Virus record (IMG/VR): IMGVR_UViG_3300034071_000380
Coordinates: 1 to 64,000 of that record
Source of the DNA: a virus
DNA: 64,000 nt
Strand: one strand, 5' to 3'
The position numbers and the translations under genes are program-made. Shown one piece after another: positions 2,697-42,327 of this stretch (positions are counted from its first letter, which is position 1; every line of letters begins with the position of its first letter). The notes under the pieces are model-generated. The model had not been told where the DNA came from. It saw nothing but the letters and a program-made list of their open reading frames with translations, and did no database searches.

Positions 2697-2817
2697 CTTT
2701 TTCCATAAGTTGAGTAAGCTCTGCCCGTAGTATTGCAATCTGAGTCTCATAGTTTGCTACAATCTCCCCAATGCGCTGCTGAAGGGCGGTAATAATTAAT
2801 TCTGCCTTTGTTGACAT
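2662..2817 (-). CDS. 51-aa coiled-coil protein (MSTKAELIITALQQRIGEIVANYETQIAILRAELTQL...)
   Basis: Read manually, below the ORF-track cutoff; fills the gap after the tail fibre gene; heptad pattern. Confidence 0.65.
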   Translation of the reverse strand: MSTKAELIITALQQRIGEIVANYETQIAILRAELTQLMEKDVQEETTEDSK

Positions 2818-2850
2818 TATTCTTCCAATCTATTAGTACTAAGGATAACA

Positions 2851-10884: not shown

Positions 10885-11355
10885 TTATACCTCTTCCATT
10901 GAAATAGATATATTCCAGTGTGCTTGAATTCCTCGTTTAACTAAATTAAATGTACAGTCTGTAAATGATACAGTATGTGACTCATATCCAGAAGATACTT
11001 GGCTTGCACCGTTTTTTGCATAGTTAATTCTAATATCAAATGTGCCTTTTCCTAGTGTGCTTTCATAAAATGTTCTTAGGTCTTCCGCTCCCCAATATCC
11101 GTCCGCTGTTTCAGTTCTATATGCAGGAACCAAGTCCCATGAAATACTAAAAGATTTTTTATCAGCAATAAAAAATTTTCTTAATGTTCCGTTTGACATT
11201 CTTTGTGTTTGTTGAATTCTATTATGGCTTACTGTAAATGGACCACGATTATGATCCGTAACGGTATTCCATTTTGTTGTTCCATCTCCGCCATTTGCGG
11301 AGGCATCTACGCCGTAGACTTGAAGGAGGGCTCCCCTAGGTAAAGTAATAGCCAT
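10885..11355 (-). CDS. distal tail (Dit-like) protein
   Basis: Immediately downstream of tape measure; RMSNGTLR...FSISW...ISMEEV pattern. Confidence 0.6.
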   Translation of the reverse strand: MAITLPRGALLQVYGVDASANGGDGTTKWNTVTDHNRGPFTVSHNRIQQTQRMSNGTLRKFFIADKKSFSISWDLVPAYRTETADGYWGAEDLRTFYESTLGKGTFDIRINYAKNGASQVSSGYESHTVSFTDCTFNLVKRGIQAHWNISISMEEV

Positions 11356-14300
11356 TAGTTTCTTCTTCCCACTCCACTCATTGCTGCTCTCATTACATTC
11401 TTTTGATCAAGCATGTCTACAACCATTGAAGCAATCATTCTTTCATCTTGTCCTGGTTGTGCATTAACAACAAATCCACCAACATCATAGTGATGAACTG
11501 CTCCACCCTTATTATATCCTGGAATTTGATTTTTGCCAAGAGACACTGTGTTTGTAGGAATGTTATATTTAGGTCCAGCTAGTCCGCCCATTGCATAAGA
11601 TGGAACGCTCATATTAGAATAATTAGATGGATTTGCATATCCTCCACTTGCAAATTTAGGAATTTGTATTTTTCCATTGTTAATAAATCCCCCGCCTGCT
11701 GCTTCTTCCACATTTTTTAGCTGTTCTTTAATATTAGAAATTATTGACATAAAGTCTTTTTCAGATAAAGCTCCTCTAGCGTATAGACTTACAGCTGATT
11801 TTTGAGCTGCTAAAAGATCTTTTTCATCTGCATAAGTTTTTCCACTTGTATATTTGCCAAAACGTGTAAACATTAAAAGTGCACCTAAAGCTTTTTGCGT
11901 ATCACTTATTCCAACACCCACAGCTCCCGTTTGAGCTCTTTGTGCATTTAAAATATATTCAAATGGATTATATCCTGAGCCATGAGCTAACATGTCTATG
12001 TCGCTAGCATTATGTCCGCCATCAAATCTGACTCCAAGATTTGCAGCCATTTCTGCTATCTCTTCTTGATTTAAAGAACTAAATTCTCCCCTAACGGCAT
12101 ATCTGTATTTTTCATCTATTCCAATTTGTTTCTTTGCTTTATCTATTGCTAGTATTTGTAAAATTCTTGAAACGCTTACATGCTCATCAGACTCATAATT
12201 GCTTCGTGCTGGCATATAAAATTCTTCTGAGCTACTGCCTCTCATGGTGTCTTCTGTACGTGCTATAGGCCTTAAATTACCATTTTCGTTAACTGCTTGT
12301 AATATTTGAGCAAGCTCTGCTTGAGAATATTTTTCTTTATCTAAATAAAATACTTCCTTTGCTAAAAGATCTTCTGCAATTATTGGAGGTGCTTCTCCAG
12401 GTTTATATAAATTAAGTTCTTTTAATTTTGCTATATAAGCAGATTCTTCAAGGGGAAAGCCTGAGCTTAGCTCTCCTTCTTTTTTACTGTAATGAAAAGG
12501 CTTTCCAAATCTTTGCAAGAAAAAGGTATCTACTGAATGAAACTGTTCTGGCTTTCCATTATATTTCATTAAATTAGAAAGTGTGCTTACTATAAACGGT
12601 TTATTTGGCTTCCATTCACCCTGCATATGTGACTGAACTGCGTCATAAATTCCAAAGTGTCTCGATGTTCTAGCTGCGGCTAATTCTTCGGGGGTGCCGA
12701 CAGTTCCTTCAGGAAGTCCTTTTGGACCAAAAAATCTAGAAAGTATGTGGGTTGCTGCATCTTTTTCAAAAAGATCTCCACTGCCATCTGTTGATGGGAA
12801 ATCGTCATTAAATATTCTTATCATAGGAATATCTCTTGGTGTTAAAGGAGTGTAAGAAGGTTCCCAACCTCTTGCCTTTAATTCTGCAATTTCAGCTTTA
12901 GTTAAAGGCTTTTCTCCACGTATACCATGCAAGCCGCCTCTTGGGCCACCTTGTCGTGCAATATTGGCAGCTACCGCTTCTTGTTGTAGTCTGACAGTTT
13001 CTATATATTCCTGAACCATTTTTGTAAGTAGTGGTGAAATTGCTTTTGTTTTAGTTTTAATAGCAACAGCATCTTTTGTATTGCCACGCATTGCAGAAAT
13101 TAATTGTGCAAGCCCTGCTGGATCTAGTGACTCTGAAAGCTCTGGCCTTCTAAGGCCAAAAAGATGTGGGGATGCTAAATCTTGTGGATCAACATTTTTT
13201 AAATTTATGCTACCTGATGCTAGCATATTCATTAAAAATTCTTTTACATCTTTATCGCCCCATTGGTATCCTGAATTCATTTTATCTAATAAGCTTTTAG
13301 CTTTTTTGTGGTTTGGATCTTTTTTCAAAATATAAGATAGGATTCCTTCTGGTGTTGTAGGAATAATATCAGTTACTTGATGGCTTGCTAATAATGAGCT
13401 TAAATTTTCAGTAAGACCTTGAAAAACAACTGCGTCATTTCCAAAAGCGTTTCCTGAATACACTGGTACATTTTTTCCTTCATGAATTACAAATGGCGGG
13501 TAAACATTATTTGGCTTAAAATCATCTGCAGACATTTTTATTTGTGGCTTTTGAATCATTGAAGATATTTTGTTTTCAGCAAATGGTCTTGCTGCGCCGA
13601 TCATTGCTGCAGTTATAGCATTAGATGTAAACTGTGGAACTGCTGATGTTGCATACGGTATAGAACCCTTTGGAAGAAGAGAGCCTAATCCAGGAAGTCC
13701 TTTTGATAATCCATATCCTTCAGCTAGTCCTCTTATCGAAGCGTTTCCAGCTGCCGCTGGCAATAAGAATGAACCAAAATCTAATCCAACTTGTGCAGCA
13801 ATTTCTGGAATTACAGATGTAACTCCTTGTTGTTTTATTTTTTCTTGTTGTGATTTTAATCCTTCTATATTTGTAGAAGCAATTGGGTTTGTACCAGTAA
13901 ACGCTGCTTGTACTCTGTCTAAAGATAATATTGCTGGAAATAAAAAGTTGTCATAAATCTTTTGAGCAACAGATTTTGGAGCTTTATAATTACTTGCCAT
14001 GTGTCCAGCAGGCAAACGTCTGCGACCTGATCTTCTACCTGATGAAGATTCCATTTTTTGTTTTAGGGCAGCTGATACAGAGCCCATTGATGACATTCCC
14101 ATTGCATGTGGGGCACTTGAATGAGTGTGTCCTACTGGACCACCAGCATGGAACATAAGTCGGCTTGGTCCATAATCAGACAAAGGATTTATGACTCTTC
14201 CGCCGCCTGCAAACATCAATGGACCTAGTCCGTAGGCACCGCTTCCAATGCCTCCCATAGAGGCTCCAGAGCCTGCCAGACGCATAGGATCTCTATCTAC

Positions 14301-17300
14301 ACCCATTCCTGGGCTTGTAAATGGTTTGCGTGGCTGCTCAGCCATCTGATGCATGTAATCTGAGTGTTGTGGAACATTTCCACTAAATTTAAGTCCTGGA
14401 ATTTCTGTTCCGCCCCATATATCCATACCTGGACTACGTGGCCCAATAAACCTAGAAAGCTCTCCCCAATATTGTCCAAAAGGATTTCCTATAGGCTTTC
14501 CAGATCTTGAATAAGGAACACCTGGTTTCTTTTGTCTTGGTACAGTTAAAGGTCCATTTATCCAATTTCCAGAATCAGTCAATGAGTTTACAACTTTTCC
14601 ACCTTGTGCAAACTTCTTTATATTAACCTTTGTGCCTGCAAAAATTCTTGATCCACCCATATATTTTGGATCATTTAGCTGTGGATTCATTTCCATTAAT
14701 TGCTTGACGCTAATTCCATACTTTGCAGCAATTGCAGATAATGTATCTCCTCTGCCTACTGTGTATCTATCATTTTCATAATCTGACTTAGCATCATCTG
14801 CGCTGTAATATTCTGGTGTGCCATATCCATATTTAATAGTATCTACTGGCTTATATGAAGGTCTTCCAAATCCTACAATTGGAGCATTCTTCATATTGTA
14901 TTGTCTTACTTTTGCAAGTACTCCGCCGCCGCTTCTTTGACTTCCAGAACCAGATGTATTTCCTTCTATAGTTGAAACTGCATTCTTGCTTAAAACTTTT
15001 CTTACTAGTCCTACGTGAGAGATTCTATTGACGCCGTCTCCTGGGAAATCCATAAAGGCTAGATCTCCACGAAGTGGACTCATTGTTGTCCACTTGCCGC
15101 TCTTCCTAAATGATTGAGCTCCACCAGGAGTCCATATCATGCTTGCTAAATCTACTCCAGATTTTTTTGCCGCCCAATTTATAAATGCACCACACCATGC
15201 AATAAATCTAGTTTTTAAATCATAAGCTTTTTGTGCAAAGCTTCCAAATATTGTGTCGTTGCCTCTTCCTTCTTTATAACCCAACATAGACTCTGCTGTT
15301 TTAATCATTGAGTCTGCTGTGCCCATTTTAGTTACCTTGCCGCCATTAGCAAATCTGCCAGCGTTTAGGTTATCAAGAAAATCTGGACCAAGGTTTCTGC
15401 TTGCCTTCTCAACTGAAGAGGCTTTAATTACATATTCACCATCTGAAAGATATGCTGGGATAGAGTCAGATGTTGAAGTGCCTGGACCCATTACGTCCCC
15501 GCCTGGAGCGTAGTGTTTTACAGCCCCACCTTGTGCAAAAGTAAAGTTACTTCCTGGGTTGTCGTATCCTGGGTTATACCATCTTCCAACAAGTTTATTA
15601 TTTTTTAAAACATCGCCATTCTTTTTATATAAATATCCACCCTGATTTAAATCTTTAATTGGCCCCAACATTTCTAAACTTTGTCCGCCTCCATATGTTG
15701 GATGCACAAATGATTGATTTGATCCAGCAGGTCCACCTACTGGAACTGGCATAACACGAGCTTGCTCTCTTGTGTACTTAACTCCAGTTGAACGATTTTG
15801 AAATCCTCCAGTAGCGGGGTCAAAAGATAATCTAGCTCCTGATGTTGGCGTAGGAGTTCCAGACAGTATTTTCTTTAGTAATCCCAAAACTTCTGTATCT
15901 GATGTTTTAAGTTCTCCCTTTTCGTTGTAAATTGCTTTACCAAATGCTGACTTAGCTATTTCCTCTATGCCACTTGGATTTGGAACAAATCTGCTTCCTA
16001 CATAGCTACCGCCTCCACCAGATAGAGATCTTGCTATGTCTTTATATCCAGCTTTTTCTAAATCAGATATAAGCAGATTAAGTCTATCTTTCTCTGTTGG
16101 ACTTAATTCACCATCTGTTGCAGAAGTTGTTAGTGCAAGGAGCTCTGTGAGCAACGAGCTAAGATTTTCAACTTTTGCGTTTGCTGCATCAGCTGTCTTT
16201 TTTGCTGAATCTACTTTATTCTGAAGTCCATCAATTCTTGCATTAAGTGCATCAATTAATGATTGCTCTGCTGCAATATCTTGTTCAGCTTTTAAATCAA
16301 TTGCTCTCTTTGCTAAAGTAACTTGCTGAGATCCAACTAACTGTTGAATTGCAATTTGTGCTTGTGCTGCACCAGACATATCTCCAGCAGCTAATTTGTC
16401 TTGATACTCAAGCTGCTTTGCTTTAATTCTAAGATTAATATCTTCATCTGCATTTTCTTCATCTAAAGCTTTCTTTCTTGCGTCCGCTTCTTCTTTTATT
16501 TTTTGAATCTTTTTATTATGTAATTCAATTTCTTTACGAAGAGCCTTAGCTGAAAGTTCTGCGTTTTGAATAATTTGTTCTGCATTTGTTTTTGAAACCT
16601 TTGCCATATCTTTTACAATTTGTGAATATGGACCAGATTTTAATGCTTCTCTTTGTTTTTCAATTATTATAGAAAGAGCTTCAGCGGCTGCTGGCCCCAT
16701 ATTTACAAAATCTAAAGCTATTCCAGATGTAGAAAGTCTAACTTTTGCCATAATGCTTGCTAAAGTATCTGTTGTGTTTAGAAGCCTATTCATCTCCGCA
16801 TTTTGCTTTACTATAGCATTGACACCCTCAATTCCAATTGCTACATTTCCACTAGATGTTGCCTTTATCTGCTTTAATATTTCCTGATAAGATTCTGAAG
16901 AAGTTATAAGTTTGCCATTTTTATCTTTTGTATTCTCAATTGAATCTGCTAAATTATTATAAGCATTTAATGCGGTATCCAAGGACTTGCTTAGCTGGTC
17001 TGTATTTCCATTTTTAATTACATTATTAAATGTTTCCAGGGTAGACTTTGCAGCAGAAGCTTTATCTGTAATAGTTCCAAAACCTTTATCTCCTAATACT
17101 GACAAAGCCTGGGCTGATTTATTTGAAATTGAAATTAATGCATATATTAATTCATTTGCATTTTCTACAGACATCCCGCTTGATACAAACATGGCTTTTA
17201 GTTGAGTTGCTTTCTGTGCCAACTCTTGCTCAGATGCTACATTTAGCATTTTAAGTTCTGTTGGTAACTGTTCCTTAGCTTGCTTTTTTAGTTCATCAAA

Positions 17301-20300
17301 TTCTTTTACAGTTATATCTATTCCTTGACCAGGAGCTTTTGTTGTAGTATATTTAAATGCTGCCGCCGCTGCATTTCTTAATTCAATTTCCTTTTTGTTT
17401 TTTTCTATAGATGAAGTTAAAGTTTTATAGTTAAGATTTAGCTTTTTTACAGTTTCTTCTTCTAGGCCAAAAGCGGAGTCAATTATTCTTCGTCTCTCAT
17501 TAATTTTGTCATTAATGGTTTTTATTGCAACTCCTACACCAAGTAAGACAGCTATTAATTTGACTGGCCCAGGCATTTTTGTAAAAAGTTGAAATGCTTT
17601 TGTTAATAAAGTTGTTTGAGTTCTTGCTGTTCCTGCAGCCTTAGACATAAGGAACATGTCTGTTGCCATTTGACCAACCATGTATCCGCCCATTTGCCCA
17701 ATACCGCCAAACATTCTGCCGCCAACTTGACTTAATCCAAATCCAGCAGCCTGCCCTAGAAGCATTGACTTCATGTATCCAGATGCTCCAATTCTTGGCT
17801 GAACAATTCTTTGTTCGTTTTCTTCCGCAAAGTATTGAACTCCAGGAACTACCCCGCCCTTTGAGAATCCAGGAATAATTCCACCAGACATTTTTGGAAC
17901 AAATATTTCTGGGCCATTCTCTCCAACCAAATATGGTCTACCACCAGTAACTGGTCCTCCGCCTGCACGAGCACCATCAACAACTGTCTCTAATTGTATC
18001 TTGCCATCTCCTGCATTAACAATTCTAAACTTACCACCAAAGATTGATTCTTGTTCTGACCTTGAATTATGTCCAGCTACCTTTTGTCCAAATGGCGCTG
18101 AGAATCTTGCATCTGGGAAAATATCTGATGCTGGAACAACATTTCTATTTCTTACAATTGCTTCTAACAGAATAGCTTTTTGGTCTCCTGGAGCAGAATG
18201 GCCAGGGGCAAACAAACTTGCTACATCTCTATTTTGGCTCCACGATGAGCGGCGCATTATAAATTCTCTTCCAATTAAAGGAGTATAGTCTCCAGTTAAT
18301 TTTGCCTGAGATATTAAATCCAATATATCTGCTGGCAACGGATTTGATTTATTATTCTTTAAAAATATTCCTCTGTATAGTCTTCCAGTATATTTTCTTG
18401 ATAAAGTTTTTACTGCTTCTGTAGCGCCTGGAGTTTGCAAAATGCCATAGTTTCCAGCCATGTATTGACGCAATATGTATCTGCCACGATCCTCTAAATT
18501 ACCAATTGGGAACTGAGGAAGCACTGCTTGTCTTGCAAATCTGTCGTCACGATATAAAATTTCACGAGTCCACTCAGGCTCATTTTGCATATTTTTTGGA
18601 ACCATTGTTGTTCCAATTTGTAATGGCCCATGAAGTGGATCTTGGTTTCCTAGTGTATATTGATATCCTGGTTTTCTGAACTGCATTTGTGGCTTCCACT
18701 TTGCAGTTAATTTATCAAGCTTTGACTTAGATAAAGACTTTACTATTCTTCCAACCATGTTGGTTCCAAAGTTTTGTATGATCCCGCCCATATTTTTTCT
18801 TTGTATTCTAGCTACTTTATTTTCTTTTAGGGCAACATAATCTCGTTCGTATAATGCGGTTGGATTATATTGAGTTAAAACTCTTTCTATTTCTGGAATT
18901 ACATCTTTTGTAAAAGTAAACTCTGCGCCAAGCTCTGGTCTATCTCCTATAGTTGGAAGTTGATCTACTGAGACACCACGTCTTTGTGCTTCGTTTTCAA
19001 ATCTTGTTCTTATTGCTGAATCTATTGCTTCTTCAGCTTCATCCCATTGAGAAAGAGGAATTTTTGCAGCTCTTAATTGATTTCTATATTTGTTTACTCC
19101 TGCTACCTTAACAAGGTCTCTTCTTAAAAAGTCGGATGGTCTAAGGTTATTTTGGTTTGCTGATAAATTAGTTGCCGCTGTATAATCTACAATATAGTTG
19201 CTTACTAATACTTTTCCATCTCCTAGTTTTTTACTTACTGTAAGATGCGTACCATGTCTTGGCTCTGCATATGGAAGTGCATCTAGTCCATTTTCTACAA
19301 ACCTTGAATTTAATTCGCTAACATTTTTTGACTGTAATGTTCTTGATGTTTGAGAATGAAGTGCTGGATCTTTTTTAGACCTAGTTAATTTATCTGTAAA
19401 GTTTTTAGCTACATCTAAATATTTTTGTTTTAATACAGGATCTGGAATATCACCAATTTGAGAAATAAATCCTCTAGCATCTGCCCCTCTTGCTTTTATG
19501 CCATGAACAGTTTCTACTACATCTCTATTTCTAGTTGTAGAAAGACCTTTAACAATTCTATTAGGCATCATTCTGCCAAAGAATTGCATACCGTCTATCA
19601 TTCCGCCTTTATTTCTATTTTGAATTGGAACTATTACCGCTTTACCTTTATTGTATAGATGAAGTCCTTCTGGGTCACGAGCTGTTTGTTCTTTAGTTAC
19701 AACAAATTCTCCTGGAGTAAGCATTGCTGGAACGGTATCTGTATTTCCCTGACCAGGTACAAATCTACCTTGTTCGGTAGTAAATACTTGTCCACCCATA
19801 TTTAATCTTCTTGGTCTAGTTGTTTCTGTTGAATATGGTGCGCCAAATGTTTTAACTCTCAGTGCTTCAGCAATTCTTGTAATAAGACCTCTGTTTCTTG
19901 GTCTTGTAAGTTCTTTCATATTTGATTTTCCAGTTACTGGATCAAATGCTGGTTGATCTACAATTGGCAACTGTGTTAAATTAATTGTTCTTCCTTGTGC
20001 AGTAGCAACTCCTGTTGCTGCCTGCCCCATCATTGCTTCAATCTGTTGGTTTAATGCAATAACTCTTGCTCTTGCTTGTTCAACAGTTATCTTAGATGCT
20101 TGAAGATCTGCAACTATTTGTGCTGATTCTGATGCGGCAAGTGATGTTAATCTTGACATTTCTGGAAGAAGCGCTTGATATGAATCTGATAATGATGTAG
20201 TTATTAGTCCAGTTGCTGCAACTTCTCTCTTTAATAATGCTATTTCTTCTTTTGATTGCATTGCTAATGCACCAGTCATTGCATGCCACTTAGCAGCTTC

Positions 20301-22511
20301 TTCTGCAACAATTCCTGTTGAAACTCCACGTACCGAGCTGACTCCCTCTATCTTTGGCAGGTCGCCAGACATATACATTTGTGGGTTATTGCTTATTTTT
20401 TGATTAACTAATGGTGCTCCTGGAACAATGCCAAATATTGTTTGTGCAGCTTTTTGTTCTGGTGTCATCTGGCTTACTGGATTTGGATGAGAAAAAGATC
20501 TAGTATCTCTATCGCTTACAAGTGGGTGGCTTGGAACAACTTCTCTTGCACCAGCAATAATTGTTTGCCCAGCAATTGTTGATATTGTTGGTTGTGATGA
20601 AATTGTAGCTGATCCTGCTTTTGTTTGTAATTGAGTTAATTGATCATTTACATAGCTAAGCGCTTCTCCAAGTGCCATAGCTGCTTTAGCATCATTATAA
20701 AATGTTTGCTCTACTAAGTTTCCAGCTTTTTGTGCTGCTAAAATTTCTGGTGTTAATAAACGCCATCCTTCGCCGCCTTTGAAAAATGCTCTAAGATGAG
20801 CGGCGCCCTTAACAACATATCCTAAGAAGTTTGCAAGCACACCAGTTAACATAATAAGTGGTCCAGCCAGTGCTGTGAATCCAGCAAATAGACTCATTAA
20901 AGTTTTTACTGGTCCAGGTAGTTTATTTGCAAAATTTACAATCTTGTCAAGAACATTTATTAAAAATGTTCCAACATTTAAGAACTGCTCTCCTACTCCA
21001 GCCAAGTCTGCTTTTAGTTGCTCTAATGCTCTACGGAATCTACCAGAAGCAGATTCAGTAATTTGTGCTAATTCTCGTCCAGCTACACTTGCTAAGTCAC
21101 CTGCGCTTGCATTCATTAAATCTAAAACTTGTAAAGTCTGGCTACCCTGTCTACCTAGGTTATCAAAAAGGGCTGATAGTCTAGCAAATTGGAACTTACC
21201 AAAAAGTTGTTCAATTGCTTTTGTTTTGCTAAGAGGATCAAGTCTGTCTAAAGCTTTTTGCAAATCTAAAATAGTGGCAGTTAGGTTTCCAGCGTTACTT
21301 GTAACGATTTGTCCCAAATCAATGCCAAGACCCATGAACATTTCTTTTGCAACTTTAGTAGGATTGATAAGTGAAGCTAGGGATGATTTAATTGCATTTG
21401 CGCCTTCTGATGCATTAATTCCTCCTTCTTTCATTGCAGTTAAATATAAAGCAAGATCTTCTATATCTCCACCCAAAGATTTAATTACTGGTCCCGCCTT
21501 TGGAATAGCTTCTACTAAATCATTAAGAGTTGTTGAAGTTTGGTTTTCAACAGCGTTGAGGAAGTTAATAGACTCTGCTAACTCTTGAGTATTTTGATTA
21601 AAAGCTGTTTGAATTGCAAGAGTGGCCTTCATTGCTTCTTGTCTATCTACTTCACCAAGAACTGAAAGTCTAGTAGTTTCTCTTACTGAGTTAAGGAGCT
21701 CTGCTCCTTCTTTTCCAGTTGCAGCTATATCTGCAGATAAGGCTATAGTTTCTTTATAAGATGCGCCATACTGTGCTGCTAATTCTTTTGCTGTTGCAGC
21801 AACTTCTTTTCTTACTGTAGCTAGCTCTGCTGCAGAGCTTCCTGCTATTCCGCCATAAACTTTTGTTAAACGAACTAACTGCTCGTCTGCTTCTCTAAAT
21901 GCATCTGCTGCTGCTTTACCAAATGCTGCAATTGGAACTGTTAAACCAACTGTTAGCTGTCTACCTGCCCACTGTGTATTTTTACCCCAGTTAATTAATT
22001 GAACTCCGCCATCTTGAATAACCTTATTAAAGATTTGCATTTCTTGCTTAAGCAGAGCTGCTTTGTTTTTAGTTTCGTCTAAACCTCTTGGTATATTAAC
22101 ATTGAATTGCATAAGCCCCTCGGCATTTCTACCGAGAGGCTGAATGATTGCATTCTGTAAAGCTACTTGCTGTCTAGCAAGATCTCTAATTAATCCGCCA
22201 GAAGTTCTACTGTGCTGTTGCCAGACACCGTAATACTCTCTTAACTTTAATCTACCCTGATCTAAATTTTTTCCAAATTTATCAACATCAGCTGTTAAAT
22301 TAACAAAGTGTGTAGAGAATTGTCCAGTACTTCTTAAAGTACTTGCAAAGCCCTGCTGTATCTTTGTTGCATTTAAAGCTAACGCTTTATCTGTGTTAGT
22401 TAAAGTTTGCTTTAATTGAGATAACTGAAGATTAACCTTATTAACATTTGAAATAAGATCTGAAAAGTCTGCACTAGCAACTATATTGGTGACTACATTT
22501 TCGCTAGCCAT
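11355..22511 (-). CDS. giant tape measure protein with embedded ADP-ribosyltransferase, CHAP and LysM domains
   Basis: Follows tail chaperones; N-terminal TP901-like tape-measure core; LYRG/SSWS/SEQE ART motifs; AWCGAF/HVGLV/IEGNT CHAP motifs; YTVGRGDTLSAIAAKYG LysM. Confidence 0.92.
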   Translation of the reverse strand: MASENVVTNIVASADFSDLISNVNKVNLQLSQLKQTLTNTDKALALNATKIQQGFASTLRSTGQFSTHFVNLTADVDKFGKNLDQGRLKLREYYGVWQQHSRTSGGLIRDLARQQVALQNAIIQPLGRNAEGLMQFNVNIPRGLDETKNKAALLKQEMQIFNKVIQDGGVQLINWGKNTQWAGRQLTVGLTVPIAAFGKAAADAFREADEQLVRLTKVYGGIAGSSAAELATVRKEVAATAKELAAQYGASYKETIALSADIAATGKEGAELLNSVRETTRLSVLGEVDRQEAMKATLAIQTAFNQNTQELAESINFLNAVENQTSTTLNDLVEAIPKAGPVIKSLGGDIEDLALYLTAMKEGGINASEGANAIKSSLASLINPTKVAKEMFMGLGIDLGQIVTSNAGNLTATILDLQKALDRLDPLSKTKAIEQLFGKFQFARLSALFDNLGRQGSQTLQVLDLMNASAGDLASVAGRELAQITESASGRFRRALEQLKADLAGVGEQFLNVGTFLINVLDKIVNFANKLPGPVKTLMSLFAGFTALAGPLIMLTGVLANFLGYVVKGAAHLRAFFKGGEGWRLLTPEILAAQKAGNLVEQTFYNDAKAAMALGEALSYVNDQLTQLQTKAGSATISSQPTISTIAGQTIIAGAREVVPSHPLVSDRDTRSFSHPNPVSQMTPEQKAAQTIFGIVPGAPLVNQKISNNPQMYMSGDLPKIEGVSSVRGVSTGIVAEEAAKWHAMTGALAMQSKEEIALLKREVAATGLITTSLSDSYQALLPEMSRLTSLAASESAQIVADLQASKITVEQARARVIALNQQIEAMMGQAATGVATAQGRTINLTQLPIVDQPAFDPVTGKSNMKELTRPRNRGLITRIAEALRVKTFGAPYSTETTRPRRLNMGGQVFTTEQGRFVPGQGNTDTVPAMLTPGEFVVTKEQTARDPEGLHLYNKGKAVIVPIQNRNKGGMIDGMQFFGRMMPNRIVKGLSTTRNRDVVETVHGIKARGADARGFISQIGDIPDPVLKQKYLDVAKNFTDKLTRSKKDPALHSQTSRTLQSKNVSELNSRFVENGLDALPYAEPRHGTHLTVSKKLGDGKVLVSNYIVDYTAATNLSANQNNLRPSDFLRRDLVKVAGVNKYRNQLRAAKIPLSQWDEAEEAIDSAIRTRFENEAQRRGVSVDQLPTIGDRPELGAEFTFTKDVIPEIERVLTQYNPTALYERDYVALKENKVARIQRKNMGGIIQNFGTNMVGRIVKSLSKSKLDKLTAKWKPQMQFRKPGYQYTLGNQDPLHGPLQIGTTMVPKNMQNEPEWTREILYRDDRFARQAVLPQFPIGNLEDRGRYILRQYMAGNYGILQTPGATEAVKTLSRKYTGRLYRGIFLKNNKSNPLPADILDLISQAKLTGDYTPLIGREFIMRRSSWSQNRDVASLFAPGHSAPGDQKAILLEAIVRNRNVVPASDIFPDARFSAPFGQKVAGHNSRSEQESIFGGKFRIVNAGDGKIQLETVVDGARAGGGPVTGGRPYLVGENGPEIFVPKMSGGIIPGFSKGGVVPGVQYFAEENEQRIVQPRIGASGYMKSMLLGQAAGFGLSQVGGRMFGGIGQMGGYMVGQMATDMFLMSKAAGTARTQTTLLTKAFQLFTKMPGPVKLIAVLLGVGVAIKTINDKINERRRIIDSAFGLEEETVKKLNLNYKTLTSSIEKNKKEIELRNAAAAAFKYTTTKAPGQGIDITVKEFDELKKQAKEQLPTELKMLNVASEQELAQKATQLKAMFVSSGMSVENANELIYALISISNKSAQALSVLGDKGFGTITDKASAAKSTLETFNNVIKNGNTDQLSKSLDTALNAYNNLADSIENTKDKNGKLITSSESYQEILKQIKATSSGNVAIGIEGVNAIVKQNAEMNRLLNTTDTLASIMAKVRLSTSGIALDFVNMGPAAAEALSIIIEKQREALKSGPYSQIVKDMAKVSKTNAEQIIQNAELSAKALRKEIELHNKKIQKIKEEADARKKALDEENADEDINLRIKAKQLEYQDKLAAGDMSGAAQAQIAIQQLVGSQQVTLAKRAIDLKAEQDIAAEQSLIDALNARIDGLQNKVDSAKKTADAANAKVENLSSLLTELLALTTSATDGELSPTEKDRLNLLISDLEKAGYKDIARSLSGGGGSYVGSRFVPNPSGIEEIAKSAFGKAIYNEKGELKTSDTEVLGLLKKILSGTPTPTSGARLSFDPATGGFQNRSTGVKYTREQARVMPVPVGGPAGSNQSFVHPTYGGGQSLEMLGPIKDLNQGGYLYKKNGDVLKNNKLVGRWYNPGYDNPGSNFTFAQGGAVKHYAPGGDVMGPGTSTSDSIPAYLSDGEYVIKASSVEKASRNLGPDFLDNLNAGRFANGGKVTKMGTADSMIKTAESMLGYKEGRGNDTIFGSFAQKAYDLKTRFIAWCGAFINWAAKKSGVDLASMIWTPGGAQSFRKSGKWTTMSPLRGDLAFMDFPGDGVNRISHVGLVRKVLSKNAVSTIEGNTSGSGSQRSGGGVLAKVRQYNMKNAPIVGFGRPSYKPVDTIKYGYGTPEYYSADDAKSDYENDRYTVGRGDTLSAIAAKYGISVKQLMEMNPQLNDPKYMGGSRIFAGTKVNIKKFAQGGKVVNSLTDSGNWINGPLTVPRQKKPGVPYSRSGKPIGNPFGQYWGELSRFIGPRSPGMDIWGGTEIPGLKFSGNVPQHSDYMHQMAEQPRKPFTSPGMGVDRDPMRLAGSGASMGGIGSGAYGLGPLMFAGGGRVINPLSDYGPSRLMFHAGGPVGHTHSSAPHAMGMSSMGSVSAALKQKMESSSGRRSGRRRLPAGHMASNYKAPKSVAQKIYDNFLFPAILSLDRVQAAFTGTNPIASTNIEGLKSQQEKIKQQGVTSVIPEIAAQVGLDFGSFLLPAAAGNASIRGLAEGYGLSKGLPGLGSLLPKGSIPYATSAVPQFTSNAITAAMIGAARPFAENKISSMIQKPQIKMSADDFKPNNVYPPFVIHEGKNVPVYSGNAFGNDAVVFQGLTENLSSLLASHQVTDIIPTTPEGILSYILKKDPNHKKAKSLLDKMNSGYQWGDKDVKEFLMNMLASGSINLKNVDPQDLASPHLFGLRRPELSESLDPAGLAQLISAMRGNTKDAVAIKTKTKAISPLLTKMVQEYIETVRLQQEAVAANIARQGGPRGGLHGIRGEKPLTKAEIAELKARGWEPSYTPLTPRDIPMIRIFNDDFPSTDGSGDLFEKDAATHILSRFFGPKGLPEGTVGTPEELAAARTSRHFGIYDAVQSHMQGEWKPNKPFIVSTLSNLMKYNGKPEQFHSVDTFFLQRFGKPFHYSKKEGELSSGFPLEESAYIAKLKELNLYKPGEAPPIIAEDLLAKEVFYLDKEKYSQAELAQILQAVNENGNLRPIARTEDTMRGSSSEEFYMPARSNYESDEHVSVSRILQILAIDKAKKQIGIDEKYRYAVRGEFSSLNQEEIAEMAANLGVRFDGGHNASDIDMLAHGSGYNPFEYILNAQRAQTGAVGVGISDTQKALGALLMFTRFGKYTSGKTYADEKDLLAAQKSAVSLYARGALSEKDFMSIISNIKEQLKNVEEAAGGGFINNGKIQIPKFASGGYANPSNYSNMSVPSYAMGGLAGPKYNIPTNTVSLGKNQIPGYNKGGAVHHYDVGGFVVNAQPGQDERMIASMVVDMLDQKNVMRAAMSGVGRRN

Positions 22512-27342: not shown

Positions 27343-28392
27343 TTATGAAGCAACCTTAACGTTCTTCACAACTACCCAAGCATCTGCTTGTTCGATCTGG
27401 ACGCCAACACGAGTATACATTGTGTACTCAATTGAGTCCTTACGTGGCCAGAAGAAGCGGTAAACAGTTACATCACGCTTGATACCAATAACAACGTTAT
27501 TTGGGAATGTCAAGTGGATATCTCCGTGGTTACCTGTCTCTCCTGAATAGTCGCCGTCCTGTGCTTCGTTTAGAAGTGGAACTTCAACAATTGGAATACC
27601 AAATGCATAAGGCGCTACGTAACCTGCTGGTCCTGAGACTGGCTGTACATCTCCACGAATAATGCTTGAAGCAATATCCTGTGGGATTGTCTGGTTAGTA
27701 CCGATGCTGTTTGCAAATAGGAAATCTTGGATTAGGTTTGAACCTACCAAGAAGCGAAGGTCTGCACGACGCTGCTTGTACTTACGTGGGAGAGCCTTTA
27801 GCGCAGAGTTAAATGCTGCACGTGTAATTGCTCCTCCACCGTTGTCTACAACGTGACCGTTTGCCTTTGCCTTCTTTACAACGCCGTCAAATGACTTGTA
27901 CAGTGCATCTCCTGTAAGGGATACGTTTCCATTGAGGACTACGTCTTCAATATCGTTACCTGCCTGTGTTGCCATCATACGTGCAATGTGATCTTCTAGA
28001 TCTGGACCCTCAATATTGTCTTCTAGAGACTCTGTTGATAGTTCCCAATCTAGACGAAGCTTCTTTGTTGTCAAAGAAATCTTTGAGAAAGATACTGCTG
28101 AGTTTGCTGCTGTATCGTCTGCTTCGGTTGCAAGCTTCATTAGCTTCTCGCCTACTGACATACGGTCAATCTCTGTTGTATCTGCCTTCATGCGGACTGT
28201 ACGTGCGACCTTACCAATTACGGTTGCGTCGAACATATAGTCTAGAAAACGAGCTGATTGCTCTGGGTTTAGTAGACCGCCTTCACCTTCAGAACCAACG
28301 TGTACACCAGTTGTCGCTACTGCGGCACCAGTCATGTTGGTTGTGACGTGAGTATTAGCTGCTACTGACTTTTCTAATAGTTCATTACTCAT
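27343..28392 (-). CDS. major capsid protein (HK97 fold)
   Basis: GGLLNPEQSARF, ELSTESLEDNIEG, FGIPIVEVP motifs; downstream of protease and portal. Confidence 0.92.
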   Translation of the reverse strand: MSNELLEKSVAANTHVTTNMTGAAVATTGVHVGSEGEGGLLNPEQSARFLDYMFDATVIGKVARTVRMKADTTEIDRMSVGEKLMKLATEADDTAANSAVSFSKISLTTKKLRLDWELSTESLEDNIEGPDLEDHIARMMATQAGNDIEDVVLNGNVSLTGDALYKSFDGVVKKAKANGHVVDNGGGAITRAAFNSALKALPRKYKQRRADLRFLVGSNLIQDFLFANSIGTNQTIPQDIASSIIRGDVQPVSGPAGYVAPYAFGIPIVEVPLLNEAQDGDYSGETGNHGDIHLTFPNNVVIGIKRDVTVYRFFWPRKDSIEYTMYTRVGVQIEQADAWVVVKNVKVAS

Positions 28393-28413: not shown

Positions 28414-29727
28414 TTATCTAATTAATTCTTGTACGGAACCGAGGAAAGAACCGTTCCATTTTGACTTCTTTATTGTAGTTACTTCCTGAGACCCGCCAAG
28501 GTCTGAGGACTTCTTAATTGCAGTCTCACCTTCTACTGCATCGACACGCTTCTGTACGCCATCAATCGTGTTTCTGATATCTGATACTGTCTTTGACAAT
28601 GTATCGTATTGCTCTGCCAACTCTGTAATTCTGGAATCAACGCTCTTGCTGAAAGATTCAACTGTTTCTGTAACAGTCTTAACCTGTGCAGCATTTGCAT
28701 CTGTTGCCTTACTTAGAGTTTCTGAGAAAAAGCCTTTTAGATCGCCTAACATCTTTGCAAAATCAGGTTCATCAACCTCAACTTCTGATACGTCGGCTGC
28801 TTTTTCCAGAGTTTCGGCAGAAGCGTCTGCTACTGCATCTTCTGCAGGAGCTTCTTCAACAGCTGGTGTTTCTTCAACAACAGGTGCTGTCTCTTCAACA
28901 ATAGTCTCTTCAACTACTGTGGTTTCTGTATTTTCTGACACTTCATTACCTCCTTCTGCGTTTGCCTGTTTTGCAATTGTTTGTGTTTCAGGCAACGTGG
29001 ATCTTGACTTGTATAAATCAAGAATTCTATCTATTTCTTTTGCTTTGTTAACATCACTTGATTCTACCCAACCAATTAAGGTTGCAGGCTTTCCTGATAT
29101 TGGTGAATCAAATTCTTTTTCTGTTGACACAAAGACTGAATCGCTTTCTTCGCAATAAAAAATATTCTCTGTTACGACATCTGCCGCCATGCCCTTAAAA
29201 ATCATTTTTCCATTCATCTTCTCAATTGACAAGATGTTGCATAGTTCATTTGCTGGTGAATCAACAATTGAAAGTTCAACTAGCTCATAGTCTTTAATGA
29301 AACGAACTGTTTCTCCATTTGCCTTGTTGACTTCATTGTCTGATTCTAGAATCTTTCCGCCAATTGAAAAACCTGCAAGTGTTCCATCTAGAACTTTCTC
29401 CCAGGTATCCTGTGCGCCTTTTGAAATGTAAGATGTTACATAAACTCCATTGTAAAATTCTTTTGATGCGGGATCATAATAGGTCTCTGGCTTAAATGAT
29501 ACAACCTTGCCAACTGCAATTGGCTGATGCATTTCACGAAGATTCCCACGGAATCTTTCAAATGCTTTCATGCTAGCTTCTGCTGTAACTACATCGCCAG
29601 TCTGATCAACGTTATCTAGTGTTGCAAATCCTGATACTGTTCTCTTCTCACGATTTACTTTTGTAAATGGAACTGCCAGATGGAGGTTATTTCCATTTGA
29701 AGACCAGTTAGATTTTTCAATGTTCAT
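28414..29727 (-). CDS. prohead protease with acidic scaffold-like C-terminus
   Basis: REMH, GFSIGG, ELSIVDSPAN (HK97-type protease); start revised to MNIEK. Confidence 0.88.
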   Translation of the reverse strand: MNIEKSNWSSNGNNLHLAVPFTKVNREKRTVSGFATLDNVDQTGDVVTAEASMKAFERFRGNLREMHQPIAVGKVVSFKPETYYDPASKEFYNGVYVTSYISKGAQDTWEKVLDGTLAGFSIGGKILESDNEVNKANGETVRFIKDYELVELSIVDSPANELCNILSIEKMNGKMIFKGMAADVVTENIFYCEESDSVFVSTEKEFDSPISGKPATLIGWVESSDVNKAKEIDRILDLYKSRSTLPETQTIAKQANAEGGNEVSENTETTVVEETIVEETAPVVEETPAVEEAPAEDAVADASAETLEKAADVSEVEVDEPDFAKMLGDLKGFFSETLSKATDANAAQVKTVTETVESFSKSVDSRITELAEQYDTLSKTVSDIRNTIDGVQKRVDAVEGETAIKKSSDLGGSQEVTTIKKSKWNGSFLGSVQELIR

Positions 29728-29780
29728 ATGCTTAATTTTATCTATTTGTAGATAAAAAGGCAAATAGTGGTTGAGTAGAT

Positions 29781-31370
29781 TTATTCAACCGTTCTTCCGT
29801 CTCCTTGAGCATTTCTGCCTTCTCCTGAAATATCTGGAGAATTGGCTTGTCTTTCTTGCTCTCTTCGACGGGTGTTATTTGCCTGGCTTCTAATTTCAGC
29901 TTGTTGCTGTGGCTTTAATTCAACCATATCATCGCCACCATCCAAAGGTATCATTCCTCTTCTAATTCTAACTTCATTAGGAGTAATTACCTGCATTCTT
30001 AAATATCTCTCATCAATCTTAGATTGAGTATCCTCATCTGTAAGAGTTAATTCATTAAATTTAAGAGAAAGCGCATCTGTCTTTTCTTCAATAATTCTAT
30101 TTAATTTCTTCTCTAATGTCATTTGTGATGGACGGCAAACTTGCTCTTTAAATGTTTTATCTGCATCTCTTGCAACCGCCAAATTAACACCTTCTGGAGT
30201 TCCAATTTTATTAATTGGTACACGATGGGCCAGTAGAATTTCATCTCTATTTGCTTTACGATATACGTTAAATGATGACTCTTGTGCCCCCGCCTCAATA
30301 GGCTCCATTTTAAATTCAACCTTTGAATCTGGCGAATCTGCTGGAAGCGGAATATAAAGAGATCTATGGTTTTTGCCTCTAAGCCCAACCTGAAAAAACT
30401 CAAGAAGCTTGCGTTCTGACTCTGGAGAAAGCTTTGCGCCCTTTACGGTAATAATATATCTTGGGACTGCCTTGTTTTCAAAGTAGTCTAGGTTATACTT
30501 TCCAGCAAACTCATTTCCAGCCAAAGCATTTTGTGCCGCAATAATATCTGGGATGCCGTAGTAGTTATTCATCGGAGTATACTTCTTTAAATGAATAATT
30601 TCATTTGGTCGATCCTCTTGACCAGCAATTGGATTTTCTGTTTCCATGTCTCCAAAATTGCGGAAGAATACAGCCTTGCCATAAAGCAATTGAATAAATC
30701 CGTCACGCAATCTACGAACACGCATTGTCTTTGCTGGGATATGACCAATATATCCAATGTTGCCTGCTGTTGTGCGGCTAATTTCAATATAGCCATTACC
30801 TGTTGCTTCTAAATCTGTGTATGCCTTGATAAGAGTTTGCGTAAAAGTGTCTTCATCATTTGTTGAGTCAAGCCATAGTTGTAAATCTTGCTTTAACTTA
30901 TTAAGCTTTCTGCGTGCCCGTTCTAATTGTTTTGGATCCTCAATTGAATCAAATGCATCGTTTGTCTTTTTAGTTTCTGTAAAGTCATAGCCAAGTCCAA
31001 CAATGTTTGCTACCTTTGCATTTATTGCTGCATAGTTATATGTTGAAATTTCATAAATCTTAGAAAGGTATTCTAAATTATATGGTGGTTCAATAAGATC
31101 AAATAGGGCATATCCAGTGATTGCCTGTGCTAATAAATTCTGTTGTGTTCCAGTATCTTCTCTACCAGTAAATGACTTAGATAATTCTCTGCTCATCTTA
31201 CGACGAAATGCTGGGCTTAGCCCAGATACTTTTTTAAGGGAGTCTTCCTGCATCATAAATGGATCTGATGGATCCATCTCTGGATCCTTCTTTAGTCTAA
31301 ACAAATCCGATGCAGAAGAAATCTCAATTCTGCTTGTTGATTCTGAATCGCTATCTTGTACAAACTCCAT
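29781..31370 (-). CDS. portal protein
   Basis: TGNGYIEI, EIIHLK, YYGIP, ILLAHRVP, ITPNEVR portal motifs. Confidence 0.92.
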   Translation of the reverse strand: MEFVQDSDSESTSRIEISSASDLFRLKKDPEMDPSDPFMMQEDSLKKVSGLSPAFRRKMSRELSKSFTGREDTGTQQNLLAQAITGYALFDLIEPPYNLEYLSKIYEISTYNYAAINAKVANIVGLGYDFTETKKTNDAFDSIEDPKQLERARRKLNKLKQDLQLWLDSTNDEDTFTQTLIKAYTDLEATGNGYIEISRTTAGNIGYIGHIPAKTMRVRRLRDGFIQLLYGKAVFFRNFGDMETENPIAGQEDRPNEIIHLKKYTPMNNYYGIPDIIAAQNALAGNEFAGKYNLDYFENKAVPRYIITVKGAKLSPESERKLLEFFQVGLRGKNHRSLYIPLPADSPDSKVEFKMEPIEAGAQESSFNVYRKANRDEILLAHRVPINKIGTPEGVNLAVARDADKTFKEQVCRPSQMTLEKKLNRIIEEKTDALSLKFNELTLTDEDTQSKIDERYLRMQVITPNEVRIRRGMIPLDGGDDMVELKPQQQAEIRSQANNTRRREQERQANSPDISGEGRNAQGDGRTVE

Positions 31371-31784: not shown

Positions 31785-33665
31785 TTATACGTTTTGGATT
31801 ACAACCCAGTCATTGTCATAGTACTCTACTGAGCTTTCTGTCAGGGTAATTGACGCATTTGAGCTGTCATCTATTACAGAAGTGCTTCCAAGTATATAAA
31901 GGTTATAGTGTTCTAATGCTTGCGTTGAAGTAAATTGTGCTTGATATAAGGCTAAGTTTTGGAATAATGCAGGGATTGCTCCAGATGAAGAATGTGAAAA
32001 TTTTATTTGCCCACTAACTGCGTCTGTAAAAACAATTACAACATGGTGTAACTCGCCTAATTTAAATACATCTAAAACGCTTGTCTGTGATGTCTTATTT
32101 ACGCCATTTATATAAATAGCAGCTATATTGGTCTTGCTTATAGTTCCGCCGCCCGACCATGAATAGTTTGAGGCAGCATAAGATCCACTAGATGCTGTTG
32201 ATATCAACCCACTGACTGTCAATGCATATGGGGTATAAAAAAATTCTAAAGTGTTTACATCAGATTGTGTAGTTAAATAGAACCCAGAATCTTGTACCGT
32301 CTTAATTCCATTTCTGGCATCTTTAGATAAAATTGGATATTTATTATTTCCAGTAGTTATCTCATATTCTGAGACGCCTGCTACATTATCTAATGTTGTC
32401 ATATATGACCCAGAATTATTTGAATAAAAAATTTGATCATTATAAAAGGACATTGCAAGGCTGTATAGCTTTGGAACATATTTACTAGCATCTGTGGAAT
32501 CAAAAGTTATCTTTATAAAGAATGTTCTTTGTGTTGAAAAGTCATTAAGAACAAACCCTGGAATTGCCCCGCCGTTTATACATTCAACATATGTAGACCC
32601 ATCTAAAGATACTTCAACTGTAATGCCATTGTCTCCGTCCCAATCAATTTTTGAAGAATCAACTGTAAGGGCTGCTGGAATTGAAATTATATCTTCTATA
32701 TATGTGCTAGAAGATACTGCTGATTCTGTTTGAACAAGGGAAATTGAATTATCATTTTGATTAAAATAAAGATCTTCATTCATTATATCTGGCCAAGACC
32801 TGTTGGCTGGGTAAGAATAAAAGTATTCAGTTGCTATTGAATTATCATAAACTTCAAACAGCTGTCCAGACTCAGGTGTAACTATTTGAATTGGAAGTAT
32901 CCCAGAGGCTTGATTATAGTGTGAATTTATTTGAGCATTAGAAAGAGCATATCTATATACAGCCACACTATTTATCAAAAAATGATCATTTGCATTTAAC
33001 GTTGGTCCGCTTTTTAAAGACAAAGAAGTATTTTGAAACGGAGAGGAAGTTAATTCTTTTGTCTTTTGCAGTACTGAATTAATATAAATAGATGCAGAAG
33101 AAACTGAGTATGTGCACACGATATGCAAAACCTTATTTAAATACGGAACGGTACAAAATATTTCCTCGTTATCCATTTTAAATACTATATTGCCTTTATC
33201 ATAAAATAAACCAACATTATTTGACAAGTCTCCAAATATTGGAGTTATGTTAGTTGTTGTAAATTTTGGATAAACCCATGCCTCAACTGTAAAATCGTTA
33301 TCAGATGAAGACAGTGTTGCAAATTGACTGGTTGTTTGAGTAGCAGTGTAATCTTTTGTTATTGAATACTCAATTGAGTTTAAATTTGTTATCTTTGTTG
33401 CTCTTGAATTTCCTACAACTACAGGAAGAATTCCTATCTCTGGATCCCCGCCATAAATAGCATCATTTTCGCATCCTGAATGATCATATGCAATATCTCC
33501 ATATATGCTTGCATATGATGTAATTAAGGGGTCATCTAAAATTTCTTGATACGTAGCATATGAATTTTCAATAGCTGTATAGTTTGCAATATCAACCGTA
33601 GTCAAATCATCCAAAGGGTAGTAACCGATTGGATAGTCTGACAAAATTGTTGATCTATATGACAT
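31785..33665 (-). CDS. LamG/concanavalin A-like lectin domain virion protein
   Basis: PIGYYPLDD, FTVEAWV, HIVCTY, VAVYRYALS...HY motifs. Confidence 0.75.
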   Translation of the reverse strand: MSYRSTILSDYPIGYYPLDDLTTVDIANYTAIENSYATYQEILDDPLITSYASIYGDIAYDHSGCENDAIYGGDPEIGILPVVVGNSRATKITNLNSIEYSITKDYTATQTTSQFATLSSSDNDFTVEAWVYPKFTTTNITPIFGDLSNNVGLFYDKGNIVFKMDNEEIFCTVPYLNKVLHIVCTYSVSSASIYINSVLQKTKELTSSPFQNTSLSLKSGPTLNANDHFLINSVAVYRYALSNAQINSHYNQASGILPIQIVTPESGQLFEVYDNSIATEYFYSYPANRSWPDIMNEDLYFNQNDNSISLVQTESAVSSSTYIEDIISIPAALTVDSSKIDWDGDNGITVEVSLDGSTYVECINGGAIPGFVLNDFSTQRTFFIKITFDSTDASKYVPKLYSLAMSFYNDQIFYSNNSGSYMTTLDNVAGVSEYEITTGNNKYPILSKDARNGIKTVQDSGFYLTTQSDVNTLEFFYTPYALTVSGLISTASSGSYAASNYSWSGGGTISKTNIAAIYINGVNKTSQTSVLDVFKLGELHHVVIVFTDAVSGQIKFSHSSSGAIPALFQNLALYQAQFTSTQALEHYNLYILGSTSVIDDSSNASITLTESSVEYYDNDWVVIQNV

Positions 33666-42027: not shown

Positions 42028-42327
42028 TTAAAATGCTGTATCTGGCTCTTTTTTAGATGTTATTATAACAGCCTTTGTTCCGTCCCAACGTACACGACCT
42101 TTACATCCAACATTAAACTTTTTAACTTCGCCTTCATAGGAAATTTGATCATGCATGTATCCATGAATTTCAAATCCGCTTGCGAGAAGTTCCACACCAT
42201 TTATATAAACTCTCCAGACCAAAGGATTATCTTTTTCTGCTTTAGTATTAAAACGTAGAATAATATCATCATATGGGCGAAGCCATCTGTCTTTAGCAAT
42301 TTTTAAAACATAGCTTAATTTACTCAT
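42028..42327 (-). CDS. hypothetical protein
   Basis: ATGA-coupled to the APS kinase fusion gene. Confidence 0.6.
   Translation of the reverse strand: MSKLSYVLKIAKDRWLRPYDDIILRFNTKAEKDNPLVWRVYINGVELLASGFEIHGYMHDQISYEGEVKKFNVGCKGRVRWDGTKAVIITSKKEPDTAF

Follow-up and report, generated by a model that had tools for sequence, protein, structure and literature searches.

Virion-delivered ADP-ribosyltransferases (ARTs) and enzyme-bearing tape measure proteins are both already known. The particle of phage T4 contains Alt, which ADP-ribosylates RNA polymerase (T4 record note; PMC5512222), and fusions of ARTs to MuF (MuF-VIP2) and to other polyvalent proteins are likewise virion-carried; their entry into the host along with the DNA is either known or assumed (PMC5512222, PMC7302621). 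In a survey of phage polyvalent proteins the ART emerged as a hub domain joined to MuF and to other anchors, and tape measures were not mentioned once (PMC5512222). The tape measure pb2 of phage T5 fills the tail tube and is cleaved; its hydrophobic segments form a channel, and the muralytic part is ejected to the periplasm, possibly once it has refolded (PMC10038345). Our literature search found no description of an ART inside a tape measure: no title or abstract paired the two terms, and the co-mentions that were examined concerned separate genes. To our knowledge, the enzyme activities embedded in tape measures act on peptidoglycan outside the membrane. Here we describe a module with a predicted ART fold in the middle of a giant tape measure protein encoded by a viral genome (IMG/VR record IMGVR_UViG_3300034071_000380). 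The window analyzed comprises positions 1 to 64,000 of this record (64,000 nucleotides), and all coordinates refer to it. The source is an uncultured lake phage, probably with an actinobacterial host.

Predicted fold of the module

The module comprises residues 1244-1516 of the tape measure (273 amino acids; 17964-18782, minus strand), which is the unit common to all 42 homologues described below. Its catalytic domain was placed at residues ~1337-1513 (17973-18503, minus strand) using an AlphaFold2 (AF2) model and fold searches. The model was built on an alignment of the module with 21 relatives (22 sequences) and had a mean predicted local distance difference test (pLDDT) score of 72 over the module; from model residue 94 onwards, 10-residue blocks scored mostly 76-92, with two lower (65 and 72). 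The predicted elements were a strand at 129-140 carrying R137 (R1380 of the protein), a helix at 151-163, a strand at 173-182 ending in S180 (S1423), a helix at 185-189, a strand at 203-216, a long loop at 222-244, a strand at 245-258 whose first residue is E245 (E1488; E1486 lies two positions earlier) and a strand at 261-266. A strand and loop layout with R on β1, an S-x-S motif ending β2 and, after an ARTT-type loop, an ExE motif opening β5 is that of a canonical R-S-E ART. In the module these positions are predicted to be taken by R1380 in L-Y-R-G (18372-18374, minus strand), S1423-W1424-S1425 (18237-18245, minus strand) and E1486-Q1487-E1488 (18048-18056, minus strand), respectively.

The model was compared with 48,161 PDB representatives using VIA-align, a method independent of Foldseek. 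This analysis revealed that the top 23 chains all had an ART fold (Z 9.3-6.0, 100-164 residues aligned, root-mean-square deviation mostly 2.9-5.2 Å), and for most of them the alignment covered model residues 94-268. The first 18 (Z ≥7.3) aligned over 129-145 residues with a deviation of 2.9-4.4 Å. These 18 included the Listeria ART-ARH toxin, CPILE-a, Vis, Certhrax, C3stau2, C3bot2, Tre1, VIP2 and C2-I, as well as HopU1, SpvB, ExoS, an Rhs toxin, ART2.2, XopAI, C3larvin and the SidE family. After the 23rd chain the scores fell to Z ≤4.7, where ARTs of the diphtheria, pertussis, Tpt1 and DarT types were found. A Foldseek search of the PDB also ranked R-S-E ARTs first, with a probability of ~1.00 for the Vis toxin (best match, E 3.4e-5), Certhrax, HopU1, Tre1, C3bot, C2-I and CDTa. 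The viral structure library BFVD gave 38 matches at E ≤1e-3. Many of these bear phage ART names; among them are ModB, an Alt-like enzyme and a mycobacteriophage VIP2, together with fusions in which the partner is a head-morphogenesis (MuF), portal or minor capsid protein. None of the 38 carries a tape measure name. Language-model neighbours, used as leads only, belonged to clusters with ADPrib_exo_Tox (PF03496), Mod_ADP_RT, DRAT and ART (scores 0.83-0.90). When the neighbouring module at residues 971-1237 was folded in the same way as a control (pLDDT 80), Foldseek returned nothing below E 1 and the best VIA-align score was Z 4.3. A split β-sheet ART fold was therefore recovered in the predicted structure by AF2, VIA-align, Foldseek and BFVD, and from these models it is near certain that residues ~1337-1513 adopt it. 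The preliminary description of this DNA had assigned the module to the R-S-E ARTs from its motifs, and the predicted fold, with R, S-x-S and ExE on the expected strands, agrees with that assignment.

Sequence searches did not detect this relationship. Pfam at E ≤10 gave no match for the module and no ART family in 22 relatives tested singly, and the PF03496 ADPrib_exo_Tox profile found nothing in the module, in the 22 relatives (E ≤10) or in a six-frame search of the genome. The DUF4765 profile was silent on the six-frame genome too, but as it was equally silent on the controls this result carries no information. No match was obtained in a PDB sequence search with the module (phmmer and two family profiles), no ART family in PHROGs, and nothing with tblastn of the module against 50,697 cultured phage records or megablast of the whole tape measure gene. 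Alignment of the family profile with T4 Alt using hhalign gave a probability of 0.2 and no similarity. Because no sequence model of known ARTs detects the module, its kinship with ARTs rests on fold and motifs, and we therefore regard it as a sequence-divergent ART family. Being invisible to current sequence profiles, cargo of this kind would be systematically missed in phage annotation.

Conservation of the catalytic residues

A homologue search over 1.84 billion cluster representatives identified 42 homologues of the module, all at E <1e-10, with a median core identity of 44% and a minimum of 27%. Only 27 of the 273 columns were invariant, and R1380, S1423, E1486 and E1488 were among them at identities down to 27%; the resemblance of the motifs to those of ARTs is therefore beyond chance. 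The context of R1380 in the homologues was L-[YFH]-R-G, and residue 1425 was S in 38 of the 42 sequences and T in the remaining four. The three motifs occur in canonical order along the module. R and S are 43 residues apart, and S and the second E 65, a distance that is ~50 in homologues lacking two family-specific loops. The ratio of nonsynonymous to synonymous substitution (dN/dS) was 0.16-0.28 in comparisons with seven relatives, and the module is thus under purifying selection. Inactive ART relatives normally lose their catalytic residues.

The positions of the motifs were within a few bases of those given in the preliminary description: YTGRLYRGI corresponds to residues 1374-1382 (18366-18392), RRSSWSQNRDVASLFA to residues 1420-1435 (18207-18254) and SEQESIFGGKFRIV to residues 1485-1498 (18018-18059). 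The G-G motifs reported to bracket the module were also located, as K-N-M-G-G (1239-1243) and A-G-G-G (1516-1519). A plus-strand open reading frame (ORF) at 18001-18288 (95 amino acids), antisense to the ART, was rejected as a gene and is most likely spurious, because the minus-strand coding region is conserved and under purifying selection.

The N-terminal part of the module (residues 1244-1336; 18504-18782, minus strand) behaved differently from the catalytic domain. These first ~93 residues fall outside most of the structural alignments and are poorly predicted, with AF2 confidence <50 over most of the part (model residues 1-14 and 29-58). They nevertheless hold the most conserved stretch of the module, Q-Y-T-L-G-N-Q-D-P-L-H-G-P-L-Q-I-G, within which lies N-x-D-P-L-H-G-x-L-x-I-G (1289-1300; ~18612-18647, minus strand); N1289, D1291, H1294, G1295 and G1300 were invariant in the 42 sequences. 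The N-x-D-P-L-H-G motif was always located 122-152 residues upstream of RRSSWS and was never found in tape measures without the ART. We considered it as a general joint element and ruled this out, as it occurs only with the ART; its strict coupling to the ART makes it part of the ART cassette and not of the joints. It may serve as an Asp-Pro self-cleavage site, a binding motif or a lid over the NAD (nicotinamide adenine dinucleotide) cleft.

The module is an optional cassette in a giant tape measure protein

The module lies within one unbroken minus-strand ORF at 11355-22511 (P0001), which encodes 3,718 amino acids. This ORF is a tape measure protein according to Pfam, NCBIfam, PHROGs and gene order, as had been proposed from the sequence. 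PF10145 (PhageMin_Tail) matched residues 240-438 (E 1.5e-27, 97 bits against a cut-off of 33), TIGR01760 (tape_meas_TP901) matched residues 192-548 (E 2e-28, 99 bits against a cut-off of 29), and nine PHROG tape measure families covered residues 14-1105, the best of which was PHROG 10030 (E 4e-123). The closest cultured relatives of residues 1-900 were annotated tape measures from Streptomyces phages with genomes of ~131 kb (34-36% identity, E 1e-87 to 1e-89), in keeping with an actinobacterial host. On the minus strand, the portal gene (29781-31370) is followed by an S78 prohead protease/scaffold gene (28414-29763), the capsid gene (27343-28392), six further genes, small ORFs of 110 and 104 amino acids and then the tape measure gene; genes for proteins of 156, 745 and 582 amino acids come after it, a tail-block position expected for a tape measure.

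All 42 homologues of the module were found in long tape-measure-like proteins or in fragments at contig ends, mostly at residues ~1200-1600, and none of them was a free-standing form. IMG/VR was also scanned with residues 1-900 of the tape measure. This yielded 80 loci at 61-99% identity, 63 of which were long enough to be judged. The ART module was present in 13 of these 63 related tape measures (N-termini at least 61% identical) and absent from the other 50, most of which were ~2,100 amino acids long. In ART-less relatives with 75-82% N-terminal identity, ~330 unrelated residues stood in place of residues ~1041-1654, and similarity resumed at the hydrophobic segment 1645-1670; Pfam detected nothing in this slot filler. 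The flanking tail genes were alike in the ART-plus and the 50 ART-less phages. No co-directional ORF specific to ART-bearing loci was identified within 10 kb, and no Macro or ADP-ribosylglycohydrolase (ARH) family in the 78.7-kb record. Taken together, these data identify the module as an optional cassette, of a family so far found only inside giant tape measures. The distribution provides natural with/without pairs in which its benefit to the phage could be studied.

The module is bounded upstream by R-K-N-M-G-G (residues 1238-1243; 18783-18800, minus strand), with N-x-G-G kept in most homologues. The downstream joint is G-G-G-P-V-T-G-G-R-P-Y-L-V-G-E-N-G-P-E-I-F-V-P (residues 1517-1539; 17895-17963, minus strand), and PHROG tape measure profiles match over residues 1488-1548. 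ART-bearing relatives differed from one another in the preceding module, with breaks exactly at N-K-G-G-M-I (966-972) and R-K-N-M-G-G (1238-1243), and at a further point at A-N-G-G-K-V (2393). Because the swaps break exactly there, the comparison supports the G-G motifs as probable module joints. Variable modules were shared unevenly among 41 homologues: residues 1000-1240 were common to ~5, the CHAP/LysM region to ~4 and residues 2800-3600 to one or two.

Residues 971-1237 (18801-19601, minus strand) form a second joint-bounded module, directly upstream of the ART and common to ~5 of the 41 homologues. Close relatives have unrelated sequence in its place, with breaks exactly at the G-G joints, and it had no match in Pfam, the atlas, Foldseek or VIA-align (best PDB Z 4.3). 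Two further sequence features were observed next to joints. The motif G-x-G-x-[ST]-D-[ST]-[VI]-P-A-x-L-[ST]-x-G-E-[FY]-V-[VI] is repeated at residues ~920-940 (~19690-19795) and ~2344-2364 (~15420-15500) on the minus strand, each time after a G-G joint, and R-P-Y-L-V-G-E-N-G-P-E-I-F-V-P at 1525-1539 (within 17895-17963, minus strand) also comes after one.

Proposed role and alternative explanations

We favour, with moderate confidence, the view that residues ~1337-1513 are a competent R-S-ExE (C3/VIP2-like) mono-ART that is delivered to the host and active on a host protein; on this view, an enzyme ready to modify the host probably enters the cell with the contents of the phage tail. Beyond the fold, we infer activity, cytoplasmic delivery, release from the tape measure, arginine specificity, a host target and a role in takeover or anti-defence. 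The module would be assembled into the tail lumen with the rest of the tape measure, probably in an incompletely folded state, and would be expelled together with it when the tail opens. By analogy with T5, the CHAP and LysM modules in the C-terminal half would work on the wall, with the hydrophobic segment 1645-1670 inserting into the membrane. The ART module would get to the cytoplasm before or with the DNA and refold there. It would then use host NAD+ to ADP-ribosylate a host protein and so help takeover or blunt defence. NAD+ is cytoplasmic. An ExE motif is characteristic of protein ARTs with arginine specificity (iota, C2, VIP2 and Alt), which makes arginine the most likely target residue. 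As a precedent, T4 Alt illustrates the effect that an ART made in advance can have as infection begins. In the protein described here, the ART module closely precedes the hydrophobic segment 1645-1670 and is separated by it from the CHAP/LysM wall modules; by analogy, this topology argues weakly for cytoplasmic entry.

Several observations weigh against this account. No sequence method (Pfam, PF03496, PDB profile or hhalign against T4 Alt) ties the module to a known ART, and the Foldseek TM-scores were modest (0.3-0.46). We infer that R, S and E would line one cleft from their canonical strands in the model and from its whole-domain alignment to NAD-bound Vis and C3. The ART part of the tape measure would have to cross the membrane, and its release would depend on a cleavage site that is so far putative. 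Three folded 30-kDa domains would not fit side by side in the tail tube; an unfolded or staggered state is therefore assumed. Finally, the ART reading does not account for NxDPLHG, although no other motif in the module is as strongly conserved.

The fold and the catalytic residues indicate only that NAD+ is bound and activated, and the module could therefore be an active NAD-using enzyme with a substrate other than a host protein arginine: it could be an NADase, could modify a defence signal, a small molecule or nucleic acid, or could link NAD-capped RNA to protein in the manner of T4 ModB. The invariant extra N-terminal part could confer such an unusual specificity. However, the best structural matches (Z 8-9) were the protein-modifying C3, VIP2, iota, Vis, Tre1 and HopU1 enzymes, whereas the nucleic-acid-modifying Scabin and DarT reached only Z 3.7 and Z 2.5, respectively, and ExE is typical of arginine-specific protein ARTs; we consider a substrate of this kind unlikely. 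A different possibility concerns the time of action. Synthesis of the tape measure takes place in a cytoplasm that contains NAD, where the module could be active already; there is no accompanying gene for immunity, a macrodomain or ARH, and delivery into the next host is itself a deduction. The enzyme might thus act late in the producing cell, on phage structural or host proteins, and owe its place in the tape measure to expression or assembly only. We find this quite improbable, since the module occupies a central position in a tape measure, which the tail encloses and releases at infection (PMC10038345, for T5), and the cassette swaps beside CHAP and LysM modules that must act at entry. If carriage in the virion were irrelevant, it would also be hard to explain why each of the 42 homologues is embedded and a free-standing form was not found.

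Two explanations would do without an enzyme altogether. The module could be a structural or plug element that keeps the ART fold but has no enzymatic role, in line with the failure of every curated sequence model to detect the domain and with catalysis being presumed from the residues; invariance of four catalytic residues in a domain that diverges to 27% identity makes this very hard to sustain. The motifs could also be chance and the fold an artefact of a shallow alignment, given that the model derives from 22 sequences with a mean pLDDT of 72 and TM-scores of 0.3-0.46. We give this virtually no weight: the first 23 VIA-align chains and the top Foldseek matches in the PDB and BFVD were all ART folds or named ARTs, the language-model neighbours point to ART families, and the control module matched nothing.

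The delivered mono-ART that we favour can be extended to a broader picture, which we offer tentatively and with more doubt than belief. The tape measure would be a programmable effector-injection platform, with folded cargo cassettes exchanged between phages by recombination at N/A-x-G-G joints, release or activation of the ART cassette through its own NxDPLHG element, refolding in the cytoplasm once expelled, and ADP-ribosylation before phage gene expression. The target in this case may be a central actinobacterial protein (RNA polymerase, or a division or defence protein), and NxDPLHG may be an Asp-Pro self-cleavage site.

Other features of the locus

The virus record is 78,686 bp long, with an estimated completeness of 66% (CheckV) and a G+C content of ~37%. 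The tape measure protein carries two cell-wall modules, CHAP (residues 2438-2518; PF05257, E 1.2e-5) and LysM (residues 2583-2631; PF01476, E 5e-12), which together span 14619-15200 on the minus strand and also match PHROG endolysin families (E 5e-20). Hydrophobic segments were identified at residues 537-570 in the tape measure core (20802-20903, minus strand; Kyte-Doolittle mean ≤1.92) and, resembling a membrane span, at residues 1645-1670 (17502-17579, minus strand; Kyte-Doolittle 19-residue mean ≤1.79). A Gly/Met-rich stretch at 1577-1623 precedes the latter and may or may not add further membrane spans. Residues ~2800-3600 (~11700-14100, minus strand) make up ~800 residues with no detectable family, common to one or two of the 41 homologues, and may hold more cargo modules.

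Elsewhere on the minus strand, a 626-amino-acid protein with a Laminin_G_3/concanavalin-like domain (31785-33665; E 2e-13) adjoins the portal gene upstream, a place where the large terminase might be expected. An 827-amino-acid protein (2851-5334) has a C-terminal Peptidase_S74 intramolecular chaperone domain (E 1.6e-5), as tail fibres or spikes typically do; of the loci compared, this phage alone has the protein. At 42324-43082 lies a gene for a 252-amino-acid protein whose N-terminal half is an APS kinase (PF01583, E 7e-17); its tail is weakly cytidylyltransferase-like at a sub-threshold score (E 0.004), and it has no clear link to NAD synthesis.

Comparison with known systems

In its predicted fold and in the placement of R, S-x-S and ExE, the module resembles the C3/VIP2-like mono-ARTs (C3bot/C3stau, VIP2, CPILE-a, C2-I, CDTa, Certhrax, Vis, SpvB, HopU1, Tre1 and the Listeria ART-ARH toxin), which it matched over ~129-145 residues at Z 8.2-9.3. 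It differs from them in having no detectable sequence similarity and in carrying the extra NxDPLHG N-terminal part, and, unlike secreted toxins or effectors of the type III and type VI secretion systems, it is located in the middle of a tape measure with no immunity partner nearby. T4 Alt and the MuF-VIP2 fusions belong to the same fold class, as judged from the BFVD matches, and are likewise virion-carried ARTs. Alt, however, is a separate internal protein borne in the capsid, and the MuF and portal fusions also differ from the arrangement described here, in which the predicted ART lies within the tail tape measure itself. If the favoured reading is true, the tail would constitute a second route for pre-made effectors, beside the capsid route used by T4 Alt and the MuF fusions.

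T5 pb2, with its pb2* and muralytic pb2C parts, is similar in being a tape measure with catalytic modules and hydrophobic segments, which in T5 is expelled at infection. In contrast to pb2, the protein described here is far larger (3,718 amino acids), contains several swappable modules and would deliver an NAD-dependent enzyme that needs the cytoplasm. Part of a tape measure would then enter and work in the cytoplasm, a point still debated for siphoviruses. What is new relative to these systems is the combination of ART and tape measure, a chemistry that requires the cytoplasm and the sequence family itself; a toxin-type NAD-dependent enzyme in a tape measure would join the enzymes delivered from the capsid with the wall-degrading modules of tape measures.

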